Positions 6,766 to 16,611 of a DNA stretch of 64,000 bases are shown piece after piece. Source of the DNA: an uncultured Armatimonadetes bacterium (GTDB lineage: Bacteria > Armatimonadota > Hebobacteria > Hebobacterales > Hebobacteraceae). How positions within the stretch are numbered: position 1 is the first letter of the stretch; every line of letters begins with the position of its first letter. The notes under the pieces were generated by a model. It worked only from the letters and a program-made list of their open reading frames with translations. It was not told where the DNA came from and made no database searches. The stretch is taken from positions 32,001-96,000 of the forward strand of contig OY970296.1 of assembly GCA_963716175.1 (NCBI GenBank), written 5' to 3'. A program made the translations under genes and the position numbers.

Positions 6766-9700
6766 TCACGGCGTGATGGTGAACTCGGGCTGAAGGTCGA
6801 GTTCCTGGAAGACACCGGGTTCGTGCTCCACGCTTACCACGAGGGTGTAGAGGCCCGCCGGCAGTTCGCCGGGTATATCCCACCAGACTGCGTAGTAGGG
6901 GACGCCTGACGACCAAGCCGTATCCCTCGCCGCGTTGAGGTCGTGCTCTGTAAGTGAGGCCACTCCGGCGCGAGCCACAGGCCCGCGCAGATCAAAGCGC
7001 ACATCGAACGAACCGTCACCGGCCGCCAAGTTTGGGCCCAGGCGCGCCGCGTCGAAGACGACGTAAGCATAGCCGGGCTCCGATGCTGGCCCGCCGCTGC
7101 GTGAAGACCACCCGTTGTAGGTGGCGGTCCCCGGGTTGACCGCGGTCACGGCCGGACCTCCCAGCACTACAGGATTGCCGGTAGGCATCACAAAGGCCCG
7201 CCACATGTAAACCGCCATCTGGCCTCGGCTCACCGGATCGCCAGGCCGATAGGTCCTGGTATCAAAGCCTTGGACGATGCCGTGGGCCACGCAGCACTCG
7301 ATCTCGTTATAGGCCCAGTGGTCGGTGAGCACGTCCTTGAAGCTGGGTTCGGGCGGGCCGTCGGGAACCTTGGTGCCTCCCACCAGCGCGCGGGATATGT
7401 AAGCCGCCATCGCATCTCGGTTCACAATCATAGCGGGCCGGTACGTTCCGTCATTGAAGCCTTGCACCACTCCTGCCCGGGCCAGTCCTTCGATCTCGGC
7501 CCAGGCCCAGGAGTCGGCCTGGGTGACGTCCCTGAACCGCCCTTGGTACGGCGCGGTAGGCAGCTTCAGGGCGCGCAGGATGTAGACCGCCATTGCATCC
7601 CGCGCCACCAGGATAGCTGGACGGTAGGTTCCGTCGTCATAACCTCTAACCACGCCGGGCACCCGTCCTGCGAGTTCCTCTATATGGAAGCGTGCCCAGG
7701 AGGCATCATGGCCCAGGCCAGGCTGGATGTCAGAGAAGCGGCTGATCACAACGTCCTCAGAGACCAGACCTCCCTTCCACGGAACCTCCCCACGCGAGAG
7801 CTGCCACCCGCAACCCAGTCCGTCCGGTACACCTGGCGATGTCGTCGTTACTGGTAGATCATAACTCAGCGTCGTCAGCGGCGGGGCTACCGTTGAGAAG
7901 TCGAACGTGCATGTCGCCCCAGGCAGGACCTCTGCTTCCAGGGGGACGGAGGCGACGCCCCAGCGGTCCATACTGCCCCGGGCCTCAAGGTGGTATCCTT
8001 CCCCCGGCCGCCATGTGAAAGCATCAAGGTTCTGGTAGGTGATGGAGGTATTCGCAGCCTCCCCCCAGCTAAGGCTAAGGGGCAGAGACCTTGCTGTCAC
8101 CTCACTCGATCCGGGTGGCACGGACTGAACGGCGAGCGTGACCGCGCCACTGTCGCTGGCTGGGTTCGGTCCGTCGCAGGTGGCGGTGACTGTGAGCGTG
8201 ATGCTCTCCTCGCTGTCTGTGGTGTTGGCTGGAGCAGTATAGGTCGGATTCTGGAGGCTCGGGGAAAGCGAGAAGCTTCCTCCCGCGCCTCCATCAGACC
8301 AGGACCAGGACGCGATAGTATGCCCGGAGCGGGTGTCCGCAGCTGTGGCGGAGAGGGTGGCGGTCCCGCCAGAGGCAACAGCAGCAGGGACAGCAGACGC
8401 GCTGACCACCAGAGAGTGCGCCACCGGCTGCACGACCAAGAGGGTGGAGTTGCTGGCGCTGAGCGGCTCAGGTCCGTCGCAGGTGGCGGTGACTGTGAGC
8501 GTGATGCTCTCCTCGCTGTCCGCGGTGTTGGCTGGAGCAGTATAGGTCGGATTCTGGAGGCTCGGGGAAAGCGAGAAGCTTCCTCCCGCGCCTCCATCAG
8601 ACCAGGACCAGGACGCGATAGTATGCCCGGAGCGGGTGTCCGCAGCTGTGGCGGAGAGGGTGGCGGTCCCGCCAGAGGCAACAGCAGCAGGGACAGCAGA
8701 CGCGCTGACCACCAGAGAGTGCGCCACCGGCTGCACGACCAAGAGGGTGGAGTTGCTGGCGCTGAGCGGCTCAGGTCCGTCGCAGGTGGCGGTGACTGTG
8801 AGCGTGATGCTCTCCTCGCTGTCCGCGGTGTTGGCTGGAGCAGTATAGGTCGGATTCTGGAGGCTCGGGGAAAGCGAGAAGCTTCCTCCCGCGCCTCCAT
8901 CAGACCAGGACCAGGACGCGATAGTATGCCCGGAGCGGGTGTCCGCAGCTGTGGCGGAGAGGGTGGCGGTCCCGCCAGAGGCAACAGCAGCAGGGACAGC
9001 AGACGCACTGACCACCAGAGAGTGCGCCACCGGCTGCACGACCAAGAGGGTGGAGTTGCTGGCGCTGAGCGGCTCAGGTCCGTCGCAGGTTCCCGTGACC
9101 GTGAGACAGATCGTGATGTCAGAACCCGTTAGGTTCTCGGGTGCGCGATACTGCGGGTCCGAAACCGCGGCGGAGGGCGAGAAGCTTCCTCCCGCGCCTC
9201 CATCAGACCAGGACCAGGACGCGATAGTATGCCCGGAGCGGGTGTCCGCAGCTGTGGCGGAGAGGGTGGCGGTCCCGCCAGAGGCAACAGCAGCAGGGAC
9301 AGCAGACGCGCTGACCACCAGAGAGTGCGCCGCCGGCTGCACGACCAAGAGGGTGGAGTTGCTGGCGCTGAGCGGCTCAGGTCCGTCGCAGGTGGCGGTG
9401 ACTGTGAGCGTGATGCTCTCCTCGCTGTCTGTGGTGTTGGCTGGAGCGCTATAGGTCGGATTCTGGAGGCTCGGGGAGGGCGAGAAGCTCCCTCCCGCGC
9501 CTCCATCAGACCAGGACCAGGACGCGATAGTATGCCCGGAGCGGGTGTCCGCAGCTGTGGCGGAGAGGGTGGCGGTCCCGCCAGAGGCAACAGCAGCAGG
9601 GACAGCAGACGCACTGACCACCAGAGAGTGCGCCACCGGCTGCACGACCAAGAGGGTGGAGTTGCTGGCGCTGAGCGGCTCAGGTCCGTCGCAGGTGGCG

Positions 9701-12303
9701 GTGACTGTGAGCGTGATGCTCTCCTCGCTGTCCGCGGTGTTGGCTGGAGCAGTATAGGTCGGATTCTGGAGGCTCGGGGAAAGCGAGAAGCTTCCTCCCG
9801 CGCCTCCATCAGACCAGGACCAGGACGCGATAGTATGCCCGGAGCGGGTGTCCGCAGCTGTGGCGGAGAGGGTGGCGGTCCCGCCAGAGGCAACAGCAGC
9901 AGGGACAGCAGACGCGCTGACCACCAGAGAGTGCGCCGCCGGCTGCACGACCAAGAGGGTGGAGTTGCTGGCGCTGAGCGGCTCAGGTCCGTCGCAGGTG
10001 GCGGTGACTGTGAGCGTGATGCTCTCCTCGCTGTCTGTGGTGTTGGCTGGAGCGCTATAGGTCGGATTCTGGAGGCTCGGGGAGGGCGAGAAGCTTCCTC
10101 CCGCGCCTCCATCAGACCAGGACCAGGACGCGATCTCGTGCGGTCCGCTATCACTCGCGCTTGCGCTCAGCACGGCGCTCCCAGCGGACGCCACACTCCC
10201 CGGCGAGACCGAGGCCGTGACGGATAAGGTGTGTGGGACCACCGTGACTGTGACGGTGTCGCTGGCGGCCTGAGTCCCACTATCCGTAACGGTCAACGTA
10301 TACGTGGTGGTGGCACTCGGAGACGCTACCGGTTGCACGACATGAGGGGCATCAATCCCGGTACTCGGTGACCACGAATAGGAGTAGGGAGGCTGTCCAC
10401 CGGAGGCAGATCCGCCCAACACAGTGGAGTCGCCCGGTGTTATGATCCTGCCGGGCCCCGCTTCGGCAAACAGCCGTGGGATGACGAGTACCCCTACAGT
10501 ATCGCGGTCCGTTCCCCCGGAGCTGTCGGTCACGGTGAGCGTGTAGAGGGTCGTGCTGTCCGGCGATGCCGCAGGATGGGCGACGGCCGGATTGCTCAGG
10601 CCCGCCGTTGGTGACCACGAGTAGTGGTAGGGAGTTACCCCGTTGGATGCGGACCCCTCGAGTGTAGTGGACTCCCCGGCGATGATGGTCTCGTCGGGGC
10701 CCGCTTCAGCCATCACGGTTGATGCCGCCGTGTACGTGTAGCCGAGCGCCTTGACGCCCGACACTACCTGCTTCAGGTAATCGATGTCGTAGTCGGGGTG
10801 GAAGTACGCGCTCGCCCAGCCGTCCCGTACCACCAGGCTCTTCTGGGCGGCCCTGACGATGTCTTCCGGAAACCGCGCGGGACAGTCGTAGAAAGGAACC
10901 GGCTCGACATTGCCCAAGTTCTCGGGCAGGATCCTCTGGTTATACACGTCGCGCTCAATCACATAGGGGTAGAACTGCCCGGCGTAATCCGCGCCATCCG
11001 AAGTGAAGTAGAGCACGCGACCCGCGATGAGGTTGAACCGATGACCAAGCTCAACCGAGTCCAGGCTCGAGGCCAGGTAGTGCGGCGTTTCCCAGGCGAT
11101 GGGAGCGAACCCGCACGCCGCTAGCTCTGCGAGTGCCTGGTCGATACGTCCATTCACCCAAGCGACCGAGTCTTCGGGCAGCGGGCCAATAAGCTCGGTG
11201 TCGCCTGCCGCCTCGTTCCATACTGACCGGAGGAATTCGCAGTCATCCCCTGTCATGCCATCGTAGGGGTTGGGAGTACTGTCGTACTGATGGGTGTAGC
11301 CATGGTCAATGATCTGGCCTCCTCGGGAGACCATATACTTGAGCGCATTCACAACTGTGTGTGACTGAGAGAGGCGCACCGTCTGGGGAGTGCCGTTCAC
11401 AACCCCCAGAGGGTCATTGAAGACCGGGATGGTGGCGACTTCAAACGGTGCTCGCTGCGAAGCAAGATAATCGGCCACTGACTTCAGATCGGAACTGTGG
11501 GCGATGGGATCCACATCTTCGATTCGAATCAGAGCGCGGTGGCTCGGCGCGTGGTCTATGCCCACGATGTCGTGGATGAGATCGCAAAACACGAGGTAGC
11601 GGTCCTCTTCGGATACATAGCTGAACGGCGAATCGGCGAAGTACCAAAGGTTCCCCGAGTGGACCACATATGGCCACGAGGCCCCCGGCTGAGCATCTGT
11701 AGCCGGACGGTAGGCGATGGCCTTCACCTCGGCAAGGTTGGGATCCAGGATCATAGTCGCGCCCACATCCGGGTCCGCGAGGTCCTTCACAAGGGACTCT
11801 TCCTTGTACTGGACCTCGGGGAAGCCACTGCTGTCCACCCCGGCGAACTGGAATCCATAGCGCCCACTGAAAGCAGGATCCCAGTACCCGGCGTCATTCC
11901 AGGCGATCTGCCAGAGGTTGTAACTGAACCAGCAGACCGTCCGCTCTGTCGCCATCACGTCGGACAAGAACGCGCTGGGCAACGGATTATCGAACGCAAC
12001 TCCCAGGTAGAACGTGACCGCGTAGTTCTCCACCTCGCCAGCGGTGTAGCTCTCCACCGGTTCCAGCGTCCACGCCATGGGGAAATGCCCTAGCAGATTT
12101 GCGACCTGCAAGGCATGAAGCTCGCCTAGCCAGGCGCAGGGGGGTGCCGAGTCGTACAGAATGAGGGCCGAAACCGGGTGCTGTGGCGGAGGTCCTGCCG
12201 CTCTGGCCGCCGAGTGACCTAGGGCCAAACAGCTGAGCAGGATGAGGCCCAGCCATCGCGCTCGTCCCGTTGTCGTTCCCAAAGCACTCAGGTTAGAGCG
12301 CAT
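6766..12303 (-). CDS. Large secreted surface protein: DUF2334/polysaccharide-deacetylase-like domain, PKD/Ig-like repeats, three SLH domains
   Basis: Signal peptide; IRIEDV, HGYTHQ, WETPHY, YFHP motifs; seven 101-aa repeats; three FxD...W...GY/FxDGTYRP...R SLH motifs. Confidence 0.85.
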   Translation of the reverse strand: MRSNLSALGTTTGRARWLGLILLSCLALGHSAARAAGPPPQHPVSALILYDSAPPCAWLGELHALQVANLLGHFPMAWTLEPVESYTAGEVENYAVTFYLGVAFDNPLPSAFLSDVMATERTVCWFSYNLWQIAWNDAGYWDPAFSGRYGFQFAGVDSSGFPEVQYKEESLVKDLADPDVGATMILDPNLAEVKAIAYRPATDAQPGASWPYVVHSGNLWYFADSPFSYVSEEDRYLVFCDLIHDIVGIDHAPSHRALIRIEDVDPIAHSSDLKSVADYLASQRAPFEVATIPVFNDPLGVVNGTPQTVRLSQSHTVVNALKYMVSRGGQIIDHGYTHQYDSTPNPYDGMTGDDCEFLRSVWNEAAGDTELIGPLPEDSVAWVNGRIDQALAELAACGFAPIAWETPHYLASSLDSVELGHRFNLIAGRVLYFTSDGADYAGQFYPYVIERDVYNQRILPENLGNVEPVPFYDCPARFPEDIVRAAQKSLVVRDGWASAYFHPDYDIDYLKQVVSGVKALGYTYTAASTVMAEAGPDETIIAGESTTLEGSASNGVTPYHYSWSPTAGLSNPAVAHPAASPDSTTLYTLTVTDSSGGTDRDTVGVLVIPRLFAEAGPGRIITPGDSTVLGGSASGGQPPYSYSWSPSTGIDAPHVVQPVASPSATTTYTLTVTDSGTQAASDTVTVTVVPHTLSVTASVSPGSVASAGSAVLSASASDSGPHEIASWSWSDGGAGGSFSPSPSLQNPTYSAPANTTDSEESITLTVTATCDGPEPLSASNSTLLVVQPAAHSLVVSASAVPAAVASGGTATLSATAADTRSGHTIASWSWSDGGAGGSFSLSPSLQNPTYTAPANTADSEESITLTVTATCDGPEPLSASNSTLLVVQPVAHSLVVSASAVPAAVASGGTATLSATAADTRSGHTIASWSWSDGGAGGSFSPSPSLQNPTYSAPANTTDSEESITLTVTATCDGPEPLSASNSTLLVVQPAAHSLVVSASAVPAAVASGGTATLSATAADTRSGHTIASWSWSDGGAGGSFSPSAAVSDPQYRAPENLTGSDITICLTVTGTCDGPEPLSASNSTLLVVQPVAHSLVVSASAVPAAVASGGTATLSATAADTRSGHTIASWSWSDGGAGGSFSLSPSLQNPTYTAPANTADSEESITLTVTATCDGPEPLSASNSTLLVVQPVAHSLVVSASAVPAAVASGGTATLSATAADTRSGHTIASWSWSDGGAGGSFSLSPSLQNPTYTAPANTADSEESITLTVTATCDGPEPLSASNSTLLVVQPVAHSLVVSASAVPAAVASGGTATLSATAADTRSGHTIASWSWSDGGAGGSFSLSPSLQNPTYTAPANTTDSEESITLTVTATCDGPNPASDSGAVTLAVQSVPPGSSEVTARSLPLSLSWGEAANTSITYQNLDAFTWRPGEGYHLEARGSMDRWGVASVPLEAEVLPGATCTFDFSTVAPPLTTLSYDLPVTTTSPGVPDGLGCGWQLSRGEVPWKGGLVSEDVVISRFSDIQPGLGHDASWARFHIEELAGRVPGVVRGYDDGTYRPAILVARDAMAVYILRALKLPTAPYQGRFRDVTQADSWAWAEIEGLARAGVVQGFNDGTYRPAMIVNRDAMAAYISRALVGGTKVPDGPPEPSFKDVLTDHWAYNEIECCVAHGIVQGFDTRTYRPGDPVSRGQMAVYMWRAFVMPTGNPVVLGGPAVTAVNPGTATYNGWSSRSGGPASEPGYAYVVFDAARLGPNLAAGDGSFDVRFDLRGPVARAGVASLTEHDLNAARDTAWSSGVPYYAVWWDIPGELPAGLYTLVVSVEHEPGVFQELDLQPEFTITP
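8117..10237 (-). repeat. Seven tandem 303-bp coding repeats (101 aa)
   Basis: Near-identical units with 303-bp period (matching positions 8333, 8636, 8939, 9545, 9848). Confidence 0.95.
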
Positions 12304-12704
12304 TTCATAACCTACCGGCTGGCTGGCCGCACCACGCCCTCGCATGAAATGCGCCTGCCACTGCCTGACGTCGTGCAGTGCTGTTTCATAGCCTCCCATG
12401 GGAAGGTTATGAAACAGCTTCTAGTCAACTTCCGCCCAGCGACCCTCTCGGACCTGCCCTAAGCCCCGAAGCGGCTCGCCTTCTTGGTTCAGCGGGAATC
12501 AGCTCTGTTCTTTATCGCCCAAGCCATCCCGCTCCTGCCGCCTGCCCAGGAAACCCCACAGGCCCCCGGTGCATGGCGACCTGGCACCACGTGCGGGCCA
12601 CCCCGGGAGCAACGGCAACGAACCGCGCAGAAAGCCGGGCATCTGCATTATACCAAGAGCGGGCCTCGAACATGCGCGCTCCGACGAACCCTGGGCGCAT
12701 TAGC

Positions 12705-12938
12705 TTCCGCCATCCCACTCCTAAGCCGGTGCCGCTGCTGGAGGAGCTCATCCGCGCATCAGCACCCAGTCAGGGCCTGATCCTCGACCCCTTCGCCGGA
12801 TCGGGGCCGACCTTGATCGCGGCGGAACGAACAGGACGTGCCTGCTATGCGGCCGAACCTGAGCCCAGGTACTGCGGTATTGTCCTCGCCAGATGGGAGG
12901 CGCTCAGCGGATGCAAGGCAACTTGTAGCACTGGATGA
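12705..12938 (+). pseudogene. C-terminal fragment of an N4/N6 DNA methyltransferase
   Basis: HPTPKPVPL...ILDPFAGSGPTLIAAERTGR motif; no recognisable N-terminal part. Confidence 0.8.
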
Positions 12939-13018
12939 ATGGGGCGGGGAGATTACGCCAGCGCTGACAGCCCCAACGAAACGGACGTTTGCGCCACGAG
13001 AAGATGCTATGGCATTTG

Positions 13019-14218
13019 TCAAGCGGCCTGAGGCGCCAAACTGCGTATCATGAGACGGTTGGTTTCGTAGTCCGGATCAAAGGGCCGGCCCGTCTTGAGG
13101 ACGGCGAAGATGATACGAAGCAGCTTGCTCATGCAGGCGATGATTGCTGCCTTGGGACGCTTGCCCTCGGCCAGTTTCCGGAGGTAGTACTGCCGCAGGA
13201 CGGGGTTGTGATTGCGTACCGAGAGGGCGGCCAGGTAGAGGGCATGGCGCAGGGCGGCGGGACCGCACTTGGATAGCTTGACCTTCCCGGCGAAGCGCCC
13301 TGACTGCCGGAACCGGGGATTGAGGCCAGCGAAAGCGATCGCTTGGGTGTCCGTGTCCAGCTGCTCGACGGGGAGCTCCGCCAGGATCACCGGGACGGTG
13401 GCGGCGCCCAGGCCCTCGATGGTGAAGAGCAGATTCCCCTGCACCTGCTCCGCGATGGTCGTCTCCAGCGCCGCGAGACTGCGCTGCAGTTGGCGGATCG
13501 CCGCCACCAGCTGCCGCACCACCACGGCGTCGGTTGTGGTACCTTGCTCTCCTGGGATGGATCTGGCTGACGCCACCAGACGGTCGGCCCGCAGCCTGCC
13601 CACCCGACGCGTGTTGGCTTTCAGTTGTGCCACTCTGTCCGGCCGGGCCTGTGCCAGCATTCCTCCGAGGGGGTATCGATCGAGCACCGCCAACGCGCCG
13701 TAGCAATCAAGGCGGTAGAACCCGCGCTCCACACTGGGGTTGACGCGCTCCAGCAAGCTGCGGAGCAGGTTCACCTGAGCCACCAGACTCGTCAGCAACG
13801 TGTGGCGGCTGCGAGTGAGCCGGGCCAAAGCTGCTTGCTCTGCAGCCACCGTTGCGCGAGGTCGGAGGGCTCGGCAGTAGCGAGCCAGGATGACGGCATC
13901 GACCCGATCGGTCTTCGTGCGCGCCATCAACACCTTGGCAAAGTGATGGCTGGAGCGAGCATTGACCACGCTAACCGTAAAGCCGGGCTGGGCGCGCAGG
14001 AACGCTGCCAGCCGGTGACCGTAGTTGCCGGTGGCCTCCAGGCAGACATGCAGGCTGCTGACCTCAGGCAGCCGCGCCAGCGCATCCAGCAGCCGCGCGT
14101 ACCCAGCGGCATCATCGGTGAATTCGAAATCCTTCGTCCGCAGCTCGCCGTCTCCGTCCACCACCGCCGCGATAGGGCGGCCTTTGCTCACGTCGATTCC
14201 CACGAAGTACTGGCGCAT
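13019..14218 (-). CDS. IS110 family transposase/recombinase
   Basis: VGIDVSK, CLEATG, KTDRVDA (DEDD), AFAGLNP..RQSG, SKCG; ATG at 14218 after AAGGAGA. Confidence 0.95.
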   Translation of the reverse strand: MRQYFVGIDVSKGRPIAAVVDGDGELRTKDFEFTDDAAGYARLLDALARLPEVSSLHVCLEATGNYGHRLAAFLRAQPGFTVSVVNARSSHHFAKVLMARTKTDRVDAVILARYCRALRPRATVAAEQAALARLTRSRHTLLTSLVAQVNLLRSLLERVNPSVERGFYRLDCYGALAVLDRYPLGGMLAQARPDRVAQLKANTRRVGRLRADRLVASARSIPGEQGTTTDAVVVRQLVAAIRQLQRSLAALETTIAEQVQGNLLFTIEGLGAATVPVILAELPVEQLDTDTQAIAFAGLNPRFRQSGRFAGKVKLSKCGPAALRHALYLAALSVRNHNPVLRQYYLRKLAEGKRPKAAIIACMSKLLRIIFAVLKTGRPFDPDYETNRLMIRSLAPQAA

Positions 14219-14269
14219 TCTCCTTGCCTCCGCTATCATGGACGTGCGGTGGCCGGGGCCTCCTGGCTG

Positions 14270-14462
14270 CTCAGTCCTAACCCTCACTCGGCTCAATGTG
14301 TGGTCGTCTGCCACAAGATGCTCGATCTGGGCTTGAGGCTGGGCCGGGAGCGACGTTCTTCTCGGTTGGGTCAAGGCCCGAGTCGGATTAGTGTCGTCTC
14401 CCGGCTCACCGCCTCTCCCCAGTTGCCTAACGGCCACTGCCCGATCCTGCATGAGGCCACCA
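14270..14462 (-). ncRNA. Putative IS110 bridge RNA
   Basis: Stem-loops containing ATCCGACT and CGAGAAG (match the target flanks) and AGCATCT and CGAG (match the donor junction); RNA ends approximate. Confidence 0.85.
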
Positions 14463-14478
14463 CCATCCATGATACGAG

Positions 14479-14539
14479 TCGGATACTGTCGCCACAGGGC
14501 TTCTGGCCCATCCTGACGCCGCAGATGAGTTTCGGAACA
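14479..14539. mobile_element. IS481-like terminal sequence interrupted by the IS110
   Basis: Reverse complement reads TGTTCCGAAACTCATCTGC from 14539. Confidence 0.7.
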
Positions 14540-14643
14540 CTACGGTGTACCGACCCGACTTGACGCGCGCAGGGAGCTCTGTTCTCGGGCTCTCTCTTCA
14601 CCACTCTCCTCTCGCCTCGCTCGCCGCGGACGCCGTTCCTGCC

Positions 14644-16611
14644 CTAGCTCCAGGGCGCGAGCTGCGTGTTCATCCCGAACAGCGGGTCGATCAGGCTGCG
14701 CAGGCCGAAGATGAGGAAGTGGCCTAGCACCATGCCGAGGAAGAGCGGGCGGCAGGTCTTGTACAGCCGCAGGCCGCCGATGCGGCGTAGCGTGACCACG
14801 ACGATCCAGGCGATGAGCGCGTTCGTCCAGATGCGCGCGTTCATGCCCCAGGTGTCGGCCATCACGAAGCCGATCGGGCTGATCCCCCACCACAGGAAGC
14901 TGGTGTGCAGCCAGTGCAGCAGCAGCATGATCGCACCGCCGCTGATGAGGCCGAAGGGGAGGTAGCAATCCGACGCGCGTGGGTTGCGCAGGTCATCCAT
15001 CAACTGCCCGAACTGGCTCAGACCCATGTCCCGGAACCCCCAGGTGTCGAACTTGAAGGCCCCGTGTGTATACGCGCAGTAGAGGACGACCCACGGCGAG
15101 ATGGCGAGCATCAGCACCACGGACACCAGCAGCCCAATAGTCACCAGTCGCCCCGGCAGCCGCGCCGAGTGCGCCACCTTCAGGTCGTTCATCGCGTAGT
15201 GCATGAAGTTGACCTTGTACTCCAGCATGAAGGTGGCCTGAAGGTAGGTCATCATGGTGAGCGTGGGGCCGGAGTAGGCCCCGGCGCCAGTGAGGTTGAC
15301 CAGCATATCCTTGGCCGGCAGTCCCGGGTCCGGGACATACACGCCGCTGGCCGAGACGAGGCGGGCCATGGACAGCGAGAAGGCGTAGTAGACGGTGATC
15401 AGCGCTGCGAAGGCCCATAGGCTCATGCCGGTGCGCGAGGCCCACAGCGCGATCAGGAAGCTGCTCGTCCCGAGCCCCAGCAGCGCCGCGCGGGGAGAGC
15501 GGCGCGAGCGGATCCTGCGGGACGGGCCGGCCGACCAGATGCCCGAACGCGTTGGCGATCGACTTGCGCGACTGCCAGAGGAGCAGCCCGGCCAGCATCA
15601 GCGAGCCGCCGACCTGTTGGTAGGTCAGAAAGGCCCAGGGGCTAAAGACCCGGGCGCTCAGCCCTTCCTGACCGAACCCAAGGACGGAGAGGGTGACGAG
15701 CGCGACGCGGTTGACGATGAAGAAGAACCACAAGCTGAGCGCCACCTCTGCCGGCAGGAGGGCGATGATACCGATGGTTTCGAAGCCGATGTAGACCGTC
15801 GTGCCGGAGATGGCGTCCCAGTGACCGTTTCCCCTGAGCCAGGGGCTCAGCTCGAAATAGAGCGGAGTGTAGGGCACAGCCGGCGCGAAGGTGTGCGCCA
15901 TCTGCACCAGCGACTGCACGACAGGCAGTGCGATCCCGGCCCACAGGTACCGGTTGCGGAAGAGCGGCGCGCGCAGGGAGGGCACGCCGTCGCCGACGAT
16001 CTCCGTGGGGATGGCGGCGAAGGGGAAGCTCAGACGCTGCCCCTCGATCCAGTCCTTCCGCAGCAGACAGCCCAACGAGAACAAACCGGTGTAGAGGGCC
16101 AGCGCGAAGCCCGCCCAGGCGGCCATGGGAGTGAGCCACGGGCTCCAGGGGATGGCCGCGCCGGCCGGTGCGCCTTCGAAGTACCAGTGCACGGCCTCGG
16201 GCAGCTGCACCTGGAGCCAGGTCGGTACCATCGGGAGAAACACCTCCGCCCACTGATTCCCCGGCGACGCGAAGTAGCGGGGATGCACGGAGTTGCCAGT
16301 GGAGTACATGTTCAGGCCCTCGCTCGCAAGGGCGCCTGAGATCGCCATCATGGCGTACATCAGCAGCAGTTCCGGGGCGGTGAAGGCCCACTGCGGCCGC
16401 CGGCGCGCCAACAGTGTGTTCACTGGGAAGACCAGCAGGAACAGCACGAAGATCGGCCCCAGCGCCAGCGGCCGGAAGGCCCAGTCGTACTTGTTCAGCG
16501 AGAGGTTGATCCAGGGTATCAGAAAGGCAAGCGCGACTACCAGTAGCGCGCCGACGAACAGCGCACGCAGCCGTGGCAGCCGGACCGTCGGCTCGGCGGG
16601 TGCCGTCTCAC
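14644..16611 (-). pseudogene. DUF6785/DUF6784-like polytopic membrane protein, copy 1 (frameshifted)
   Basis: Two ORFs (14993-16447, 14644-15426) align with paralogs (ELLLMY, WIEGQRLSFP, WWGISPIGF, GGLRLY..RPLFLG); frameshift near 15490; probable GTG start at 16611 is out of frame. Confidence 0.8.

Follow-up and report, generated by a model that had tools for sequence, protein, structure and literature searches.

Positions 13002-14478 on the minus strand of the window, the 64,000-nt stretch of an uncultured Armatimonadetes bacterium analysed here (contig OY970296.1, positions 32,001 to 96,000), form a structurally complete insertion sequence (IS) of the IS110 group of the IS110 family. The interpretation favoured for the whole, by analogy with the element IS621 and with a probability of roughly 0.9, is that of a complete IS110-group element with a decodable bridge RNA acting by an IS621-like mechanism. 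On this analogy the element would be excised as a circle, and joining of the right and left ends across one CT would set a -35 box (TTGACA) 17 nt from a -10 box (TATCAT). The junction promoter so formed would transcribe a bridge RNA of ~185 nt from the 260-nt left end. A first internal loop of this RNA would read the target AATCCGA-CT-TCTCG through a 9-nt left guide and a 7-nt right guide, a second internal loop would read the donor junction AGCAT-CT-CG(TATC), and a recombinase of 399 amino acids (aa) with a DEDD plus Ser active site would exchange strands at the CT core. Transcription, the ends of the RNA, the circle, catalysis and present-day mobility are all proposed by analogy only.

Read along the minus strand, the order is left flank, CT, a 260-nt non-coding left end (14478-14219), a 399-codon open reading frame (ORF), a 17-nt right end and right flank. 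The left flank, ...GACAGTATCCGA, reaches 14479. The right end (13018-13002) finishes ...ATAGCAT-CT, after which the right flank continues TCTCGTGGCGCAAACG... The element and its two target halves are located as follows.

13002..14478, minus strand: the complete IS110-group element of 1477 bp, bounded on each side by the core CT (14478-14477 and 13003-13002)
14479..14485, minus strand: left target half TATCCGA, flank and not element; ...TCCGA precedes all 13 close left ends
12997..13001, minus strand: right target half TCTCG, flank, followed by the conserved stretch CGCSACAAACG...GTTT

The letters that the preliminary description of this DNA had given for the empty site and the circle junction were confirmed on reading the sequence (flanks TATCCGA and TCTCG, right end AGCAT-CT). 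According to excerpts of PMC11208160, IS110-group elements have a long left non-coding end, a short right end and an RNA upstream of the gene. With a left end of 260 nt, a right end of 17 nt and the predicted RNA upstream of the gene, the element therefore belongs to the IS110 group and not to the IS1111 group. Long terminal inverted repeats are absent, the donor being flanked by a 4-bp CCAT/ATGG pair only.

Several comparisons bear on the boundaries. The likeness to relatives ends at the element ends, a second full copy in the same genome (copy B) being 94% identical over 1508 nt. Related copies on contigs of three other sequencing runs resemble the window as far as 13001 and 14482/14483 and differ from it beyond. 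In the metagenome contig L049, the right end ...ATAGCAT-CT passes directly into CGTATCATGG... of a second, non-identical copy; the junction, AGCAT-CT-CGTATC, fixes the element ends to the base and has a single shared CT. The junction region (L049:1585-1798) is arranged head to tail, for which a tandem dimer, a circle-derived read path and an assembly chimera are all possible origins.

The ~24 nt that follow the right core (TCTSRCGCSACAAACG...GTTT) are alike in 10 of the 14 right flanks compared, both genomic copies included. Such conservation would suit misplaced boundaries, with the conserved left flank TCCGA and the conserved right flank (TCTCG plus ~20 nt) forming part of a longer element and the 'guides' repeating its own termini. 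This explanation is very improbable. The stretch is missing from the right flanks of L098, L051 and L048 and from a right-end fragment in the genome, and at genome position ~2966597 it is found with no IS present. In addition, the left flanks differ upstream of their last 7 nt, the right end in L049 enters the left end directly through one CT, and the contigs of the other runs part from the window at 13001 and at 14482/14483.

The gene between the two ends is the following.

13019..14218, stop codon included, minus strand: recombinase gene, 399 aa, an open ORF with GGAGG 8 nt upstream at 14231-14227

Its product matches PF01548 (DEDD_Tnp_IS110, E=1.8e-28) and PF02371 (Transposase_20, E=2.3e-18), both above the curated cut-offs, as well as the NCBIfam equivalog NF033542, 'IS110 family RNA-guided transposase', at 222.7 bits against a cut-off of 140. 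A phmmer search of the PDB matched only two distinct sequences, ISCro4 (E=1.2e-36) and IS621 (E=5.8e-34). The aligned blocks cover residues 4-165 and 239-383 of the query, with ~70 extra residues between them (query 166-238) relative to IS621. Excerpts of PMC11208158 describe D11, E60, D102, D105 and S241 of IS621 as forming a composite active site. All five catalytic residues are kept in the window, D9/E61/D104/D107/S306-G307 aligning with D11/E60/D102/D105/S241-G242 (the PDB chain numbering of IS621 is offset by 2 from the cited residue numbers). Assignment of the protein as an IS110-family DEDD plus Ser enzyme is thus supported, and the intact 399-aa DEDD recombinase of the preliminary description holds, with the ORF open and Pfam, NF033542 and the IS621/ISCro4 alignment in agreement. 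A 483-aa frame running from 14470 through the RNA region into the recombinase was set aside as a GC-rich accident, because 13/13 close homologues in the protein collection are 399-401 aa long and the GGAGG precedes the ATG at 14218 by 8 nt. The label RNA-guided transposase is already given to the protein by standard annotation, and the earlier judgement, that the mechanism is known and the ortholog may be new, holds.

The left end contains four segments that match the DNA on either side of the two CT cores.

14381..14389, minus strand: left target guide AAUCCGACU, in the sense of left flank plus core, 8/9 against its own TATCCGA-CT
14358..14364, minus strand: right target guide CGAGAAG, reverse complement of CT-TCTCG, 7/7 against its own flank
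14316..14322, minus strand: left donor guide AGCAUCU, in the sense of the last 7 nt of the right end, 7/7
14287..14294, minus strand: right donor guide GAgcCGAG, of which CGAG (14290-14287) is contiguous with CT-CG of the left end, 4/4

The four motifs first noticed in this region, ATCCGACT (8 nt of the left target guide, at 14388-14381 on the minus strand), CGAGAAG, AGCATCT and CGAG, were each found on the minus strand where they had been placed. Under the IS621 rule, as excerpted from PMC11208160, each loop's 3' side is the reverse complement of the core plus the right target or the core plus the right donor, with 4-7 nt pairing to the top strand, and the core belongs to each guide pairing. 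The orientation of the guides in the window agrees with this rule, as had been claimed for an IS621-type guide logic. The left target guide AAUCCGACU matches the flank of copy B at 9/9 positions. In the right donor guide, GA could also pair with the TC of CGTATC across a 2-nt mismatch, with only CGAG being firm. The left donor guide AGCAUCU is identical in 12/13 aligned relatives, in which the donor ends are likewise invariant. As a control on the target loop, random 13-mers from the same genome were compared with the 261-nt left end, requiring the first 8 nt in sense and then, at most 60 nt on, the reverse complement of the last 7 nt. Only 9 of 200,000 gave the pattern.

The genome of the window holds two full copies (94.0% identical, both ORFs open), a 150-nt left-end fragment and a 175-nt right-end fragment. 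The protein collection contains 13 relatives at 61-95% identity, all metagenome-derived and none with a specific name; the next match beyond these has 45% identity over 30% of the query. Ten close loci were recovered from metagenome contigs and one truncated left end (L010) from the genome of a relative. A phylum-wide genome search at E<=1e-40 gave 2/401 genomes, the window's own and one with a broken copy (G010), and a single-protein search of genome contigs for related loci gave one locus only, at 29% identity and not informative. A distant second IS110-family element, with 29.5% protein identity, is present in the window's genome as three full copies and one split copy (genome 816029-817204, 2788245-2789420, 4047778-4048953 and 783262-784435).

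Within the close clade, ...TCCGA-CT precedes 13/13 left ends, and the left flanks upstream of the last 7 nt belong to unrelated or only partly related families. Right flanks start with TCTCG, TCTCA, TATCA, TCTGA, TCTGG, TCCAG or TCCTT, or with TCGGT in L050. When the left ends of relatives with 62-95% protein identity are aligned, the stems prove invariant, and the columns that vary are those of the guides. Across the nine loci in which both right guide and right flank are known, 42/45 positions match, five flank bases being compared per locus, and six of the nine loci match perfectly. The perfectly matched pairs are listed below.

Right guide CGAGAAG with flank TCTCG: window and copy B
Right guide UGAUAAG with flank TATCA: L042
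Right guide UCAGAAG with flank TCTGA: L046 and L047
Right guide ACCGAAG with flank TCGGT: L050

Five right-guide variants occur: CGAGAAG, UGAUAAG and ACCGAAG are perfect in every copy, UCAGAAG is perfect in 2/4, and CUAGAAG has one mismatch. When the flanks were shuffled among loci, 32 of 100,000 permutations reached 42 matches, a figure that overstates independence since the loci are related. The left guide matches its flank at 9/9 positions in four loci, 8/9 in seven and 7/9 in L050. Stems that stay invariant while the guides vary and track the flanks indicate selection on function in this clade. Copies therefore do not sit at unrelated targets, the outcome named beforehand as damaging to the proposal: the left ends follow one sequence and the right flank changes with the right guide.

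The RNA and its two loop units are predicted as follows.

14276..14461, minus strand: predicted bridge RNA, ~185 nt, the 5' end placed by the -10 box and the 3' end by the last stem
14343..14405, minus strand: target-binding loop unit, with outer stem 14405-14393/14354-14343 and inner hairpin GGG 14379-14377/CCC 14370-14368
14280..14332, minus strand: donor-binding loop unit, with outer stem GCCC 14332-14329/GGGU 14283-14280 and inner hairpin 14314-14300

The 261-nt left end has a minimum free energy (MFE) of -116.4 kcal/mol and a z-score of -4.23, and 0/200 shuffles fold as well. In the single-sequence MFE fold, CUCGG of the left target guide is paired with CCGAG of the right target guide, as expected from the core complement that the two guides share. 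In the consensus fold of 13 sequences the guide-guide pairing is gone, and the target loop is open on both strands, bounded by a 12-bp outer stem and the GGG/CCC hairpin. Across the same 13 sequences, 10/12 outer-stem pairs and 3/3 inner-hairpin pairs of the target-loop unit are invariant, the two other outer pairs varying on one side only. Only constrained or sub-region folds place the donor guides in an internal loop, which is then bounded by the GCCC/GGGU stem and by a GUGGC/GCCAC hairpin. The donor outer stem in L050 is GUCC/GGGC, with one-sided changes and pairing kept. Laid on the alignment, the proposed structure has 99.0% of 402 cells paired, compared with 28.8-45.3% when the partners are slid. 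The expectation that the guides would fall in loops and not in stems is consequently borne out by the consensus fold for the target loop, whereas for the donor loop it holds only under constraint. In a distant IS110 locus with 40% protein identity (L100:57-124), a stem, internal loop and hairpin with GGGAGACG and GACC lies upstream of the gene and resembles the target loop, as a covariance-model match that is not significant (E=0.39).

Excerpts of PMC11208160 describe a promoter rebuilt across the joined ends in the circular form. A split -35/-10 arrangement in agreement with that description is found here.

14469..14474, minus strand: -10 half TATCAT, half of a promoter formed only across joined ends
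13017..13022, minus strand: -35 half TTGACA, overlapping the recombinase stop codon and present in all right ends compared

The right-end/left-end junction in L049 gives TTGACA-17-TATCAT, with 11/12 matches (shuffles, mean 0.0). In the integrated copy of the window the two halves are 1.4 kb apart, and no promoter-like site was found in 12900-14600.

A further feature of IS621, taken from excerpts of PMC11208158, is the handshake rule, by which the base after the core-binding AG pairs with position 7 of the other DNA and not with that of its own. Two dinucleotides of the window are candidates for this role.

14356..14357, minus strand: candidate target-loop handshake AA, whose first A can pair with donor T7 (AGCAT/CT) and not with target A7
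14285..14286, minus strand: candidate donor-loop handshake UG, whose U can pair with target A7 and not with donor T7

At the handshake position of the donor loop, L050 carries C, with G7 in its target. The truncated left end of L010 departs from the rule. These assignments of target and donor loops are read from the letters only, and the dinucleotides may act in this way.

A number of observations weigh against the interpretation as a functional bridge RNA system. Those that concern the guides are as follows. The left guide matches the window's own flank at 8/9 and not 9/9 positions, and the truncated L010 left guide matches its flank at 6/9 only. One right-guide mismatch occurs in three of the nine loci, a C-C clash in L041 and what would be rU-dG in L045 and L048. 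The right donor guide has only 4 contiguous nt. Taken by itself the donor pattern is weak, since 0.57% of random junctions show a sense 7-mer with an antisense 4-mer after it (2.8% show the sense donor 7-mer on its own). Others concern the fold. A stretch of the left donor guide, GCAU, is base-paired in the consensus fold, its partner being an upstream AUGC (columns 30-33 with 161-164; columns 30-31 are partly gapped in L050). No compensatory changes are seen in the 31 pairs (24 never vary, 4 vary on one side and 3 depart only through unpaired cells), so the fold rests on energy, conservation and analogy and not on covariation. Rfam, searched with 12500-15000 at E<=1, yielded no match, and a covariance model built for this element and run over 71 loci, mostly more distant IS110 elements, gave two weak matches (E 0.39 and 0.49) that are not significant. 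Of the folding and covariance check suggested earlier, the stable fold was thus obtained whereas covariation in the stems was not. A last set concerns movement. L049 is a metagenome contig joining two non-identical copies and, coming from a metagenome assembly, may be a chimera; the contigs of four sequencing runs showed no circle junction and no empty site. No free site within one mismatch of the ideal 14-mer was found in the genome. The two genomic copies differ by 6%, so there is no sign of recent movement in this genome.

The weakness of the donor pattern is also what would be expected if the matches were due to chance, or if the segments were protein-bound subterminal repeats in the DNA without an RNA guide; no RNA runs are among the recorded sequencing runs found to hold the stretch. 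Such an account is extremely improbable in view of the target-loop pattern, which so few random 13-mers reproduce, and of the placing of the guide letters in loops of a stable, conserved fold. Moreover, the loop letters match DNA outside the element and change with it in the relatives, and terminal repeats are rejected as an account for this reason.

The divergence of the copies raises a different possibility, namely that the element is a well-preserved fossil in which all parts are present, mobility in this host has been lost and the guide matches record a past insertion. Two full copies only 94% identical, the truncated left and right ends elsewhere in the genome, the want of a free target within one mismatch of the ideal 14-mer and an integrated copy without a promoter-like site would all fit a fossil. 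Against it, both 399-codon ORFs are open, the five catalytic residues are all kept, and the RNA stems are invariant at 62-95% protein identity while the guides vary with the flanks. Loss of mobility is accordingly unlikely, albeit to be taken seriously, and a complete element with a decodable bridge RNA is preferred.

The surroundings of the target suggest where such an element inserts. The conserved right-flank stretch is also present without an IS at genome ~2,966,597, reading ...ACTCCGA-CT-CGCGCCACAAACG, a site that lacks the right-guide match because three bases are missing. Paralogous cassettes of three genes, 68-72% identical in nucleotide sequence, accompany this site, copy B and the left-end fragment, each of which is positioned immediately downstream of one. 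The cassettes are located at G000:C1:2845142-2848714 (L122), 2962926-2966430 (L121) and ~2879350-2882220 (L123). Their genes are the following.

Cassette gene: terminase small subunit (terS), phrog_6299, E=8e-15
Cassette gene: ParB-domain DNA methyltransferase, phrog_498, E=1.7e-101, with PF02195 and PF01555
Cassette gene: terminase large subunit (terL), phrog_2, E=9.5e-31, with PF17289

Beyond the cassettes there are ordinary convergent host genes, and no other phage genes were seen in the few kb inspected. The IS target is thus in the conserved downstream tail of terS-methyltransferase-terL cassettes. On the right side of the window copy, a related gene remains.

12378..12938, plus strand: ParB-type N4/N6 DNA methylase remnant, homologous only over its last ~70 codons (PF01555 match limited to profile positions 159-218 of 221) and ending 63 nt from the IS

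Full-length paralogs of this remnant lie in the terS-methyltransferase-terL cassettes. The left flank of the window copy is a different sequence, a 60-nt repeat (14486-14545) also found behind a small unrelated ORF. Intergenic copies of the repeat, 86-88% identical, are at genome 2803556-2803615, 2899028-2899092 and 4505986-4506045. In two further places its last letters are ...GACAGCATCT, a seven-letter string shared with the IS right end plus core. A paralogous 60-nt repeat without an IS, in L005, continues ...ATCCGGCT and reads ...GACAGCATCCGGCT. L005 was considered as a full empty paralog of the L048 site and dropped, its left side being alike and its right side unconvincing (alignment score 39). 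The flanks of the window copy come from two families, which may reflect rearrangement between copies. A syntenic empty site was not found among the genomes of 41 relatives; matches to the flanks there were to separate multi-copy genes only. Beyond the right end of copy B, at ~3715-3815 of L122 (genome ~2848715-2848815), there is a right-end remnant of ~31 nt, 79% identical over 48 nt and ending AGCAT-CT. A second conserved right-flank stretch lies past this solo right end, giving the order IS, flank, solo right end, flank.

These observations raise the possibility of a joint reading, conceivable rather than probable, in which the small, metagenome-only clade would be a natural series of retargeted bridge RNAs, with the scaffold frozen and the right target guide rewritten at least four times, homing to the conserved tail of phage-type terS/ParB-methylase/terL cassettes. 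The right end-CT-left end junction of L049 and the solo right end beside copy B would then be traces of insertion next to a resident copy via a half-matching site (left donor-CT-right target). If true, this would be an RNA-guided IS hunting another mobile or phage-derived module.

Other features of the neighbourhood stand apart from the element. A repeat of ~104 nt, in at least 35 copies of 88-100% identity across the chromosome (e.g. 4501313-4501416 and 4506748-4506850), resembles a small non-autonomous repeat. Upstream of the IS, the overlapping ORFs 14993-16447 and 14644-15426 (14644-16447, minus strand) resemble one membrane-protein gene with a frameshift near 15430, and the tail of the first of them (14993-16447) resembles out-of-frame sequence. 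On the other side, an 1877-aa ORF (6766-12399, minus strand) contains some eight tandem repeats, nearly identical and each of ~100 aa. The motifs at its C-terminus resemble cell-surface anchoring repeats.

Bridge recombinases are under development as programmable tools for DNA insertion, excision and inversion. New orthologs with other guide lengths and another protein architecture enlarge the pool for testing, and the 7-nt right target guide of the present one would bring total target recognition to 14 bp. Its close relatives show which RNA positions vary and which are fixed, which helps in choosing what to reprogram. As far as this genome's biology is concerned, the element is an ordinary IS, valuable as a clean example that can be fully decoded. 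The target behind terminase/methylase cassettes is a lead on homing sites outside enterobacteria. What is probably new is this ortholog and a small clade known only from metagenomes.

Among known systems, IS621 of E. coli (excerpts of PMC11208160 and PMC11208158; PDB 8wt6) is similar to the window element in most respects. Both have a DEDD RuvC-like domain and a Tnp domain with a catalytic Ser, a CT core, an RNA in the long left end (predicted for the window element) and a promoter rebuilt across joined ends. Both also have a 9-nt left target guide and a short inverted repeat around the donor (CCAT...ATGG in the window). The two internal loops, with the 5' strand in top-strand sense and the 3' strand complementary, may likewise be shared, the target loop of the window being clear in the consensus fold and its donor loop emerging under constraint. 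The window protein has 399 aa compared with 328 residues in the PDB chain, and the alignment is limited to the two conserved domains. The right target guide is 7 nt long versus 4 nt in IS621 (in the same excerpts of PMC11208160), and the left donor guide of the window is 7 nt. The target differs as well, not being the E. coli REP element, and the window system is known from sequence alone. The ISCro4 transposase (PDB 9t56), compared by alignment only, is the best-scoring solved relative (E=1.2e-36), with the same two domains aligned and the same difference in length as IS621. Elements of the IS1111 group share the recombinase family and the RNA-guided logic; unlike in the window element, their right end is the long non-coding one and bears the RNA, and their subterminal inverted repeats are longer (both as excerpted from PMC11208160).

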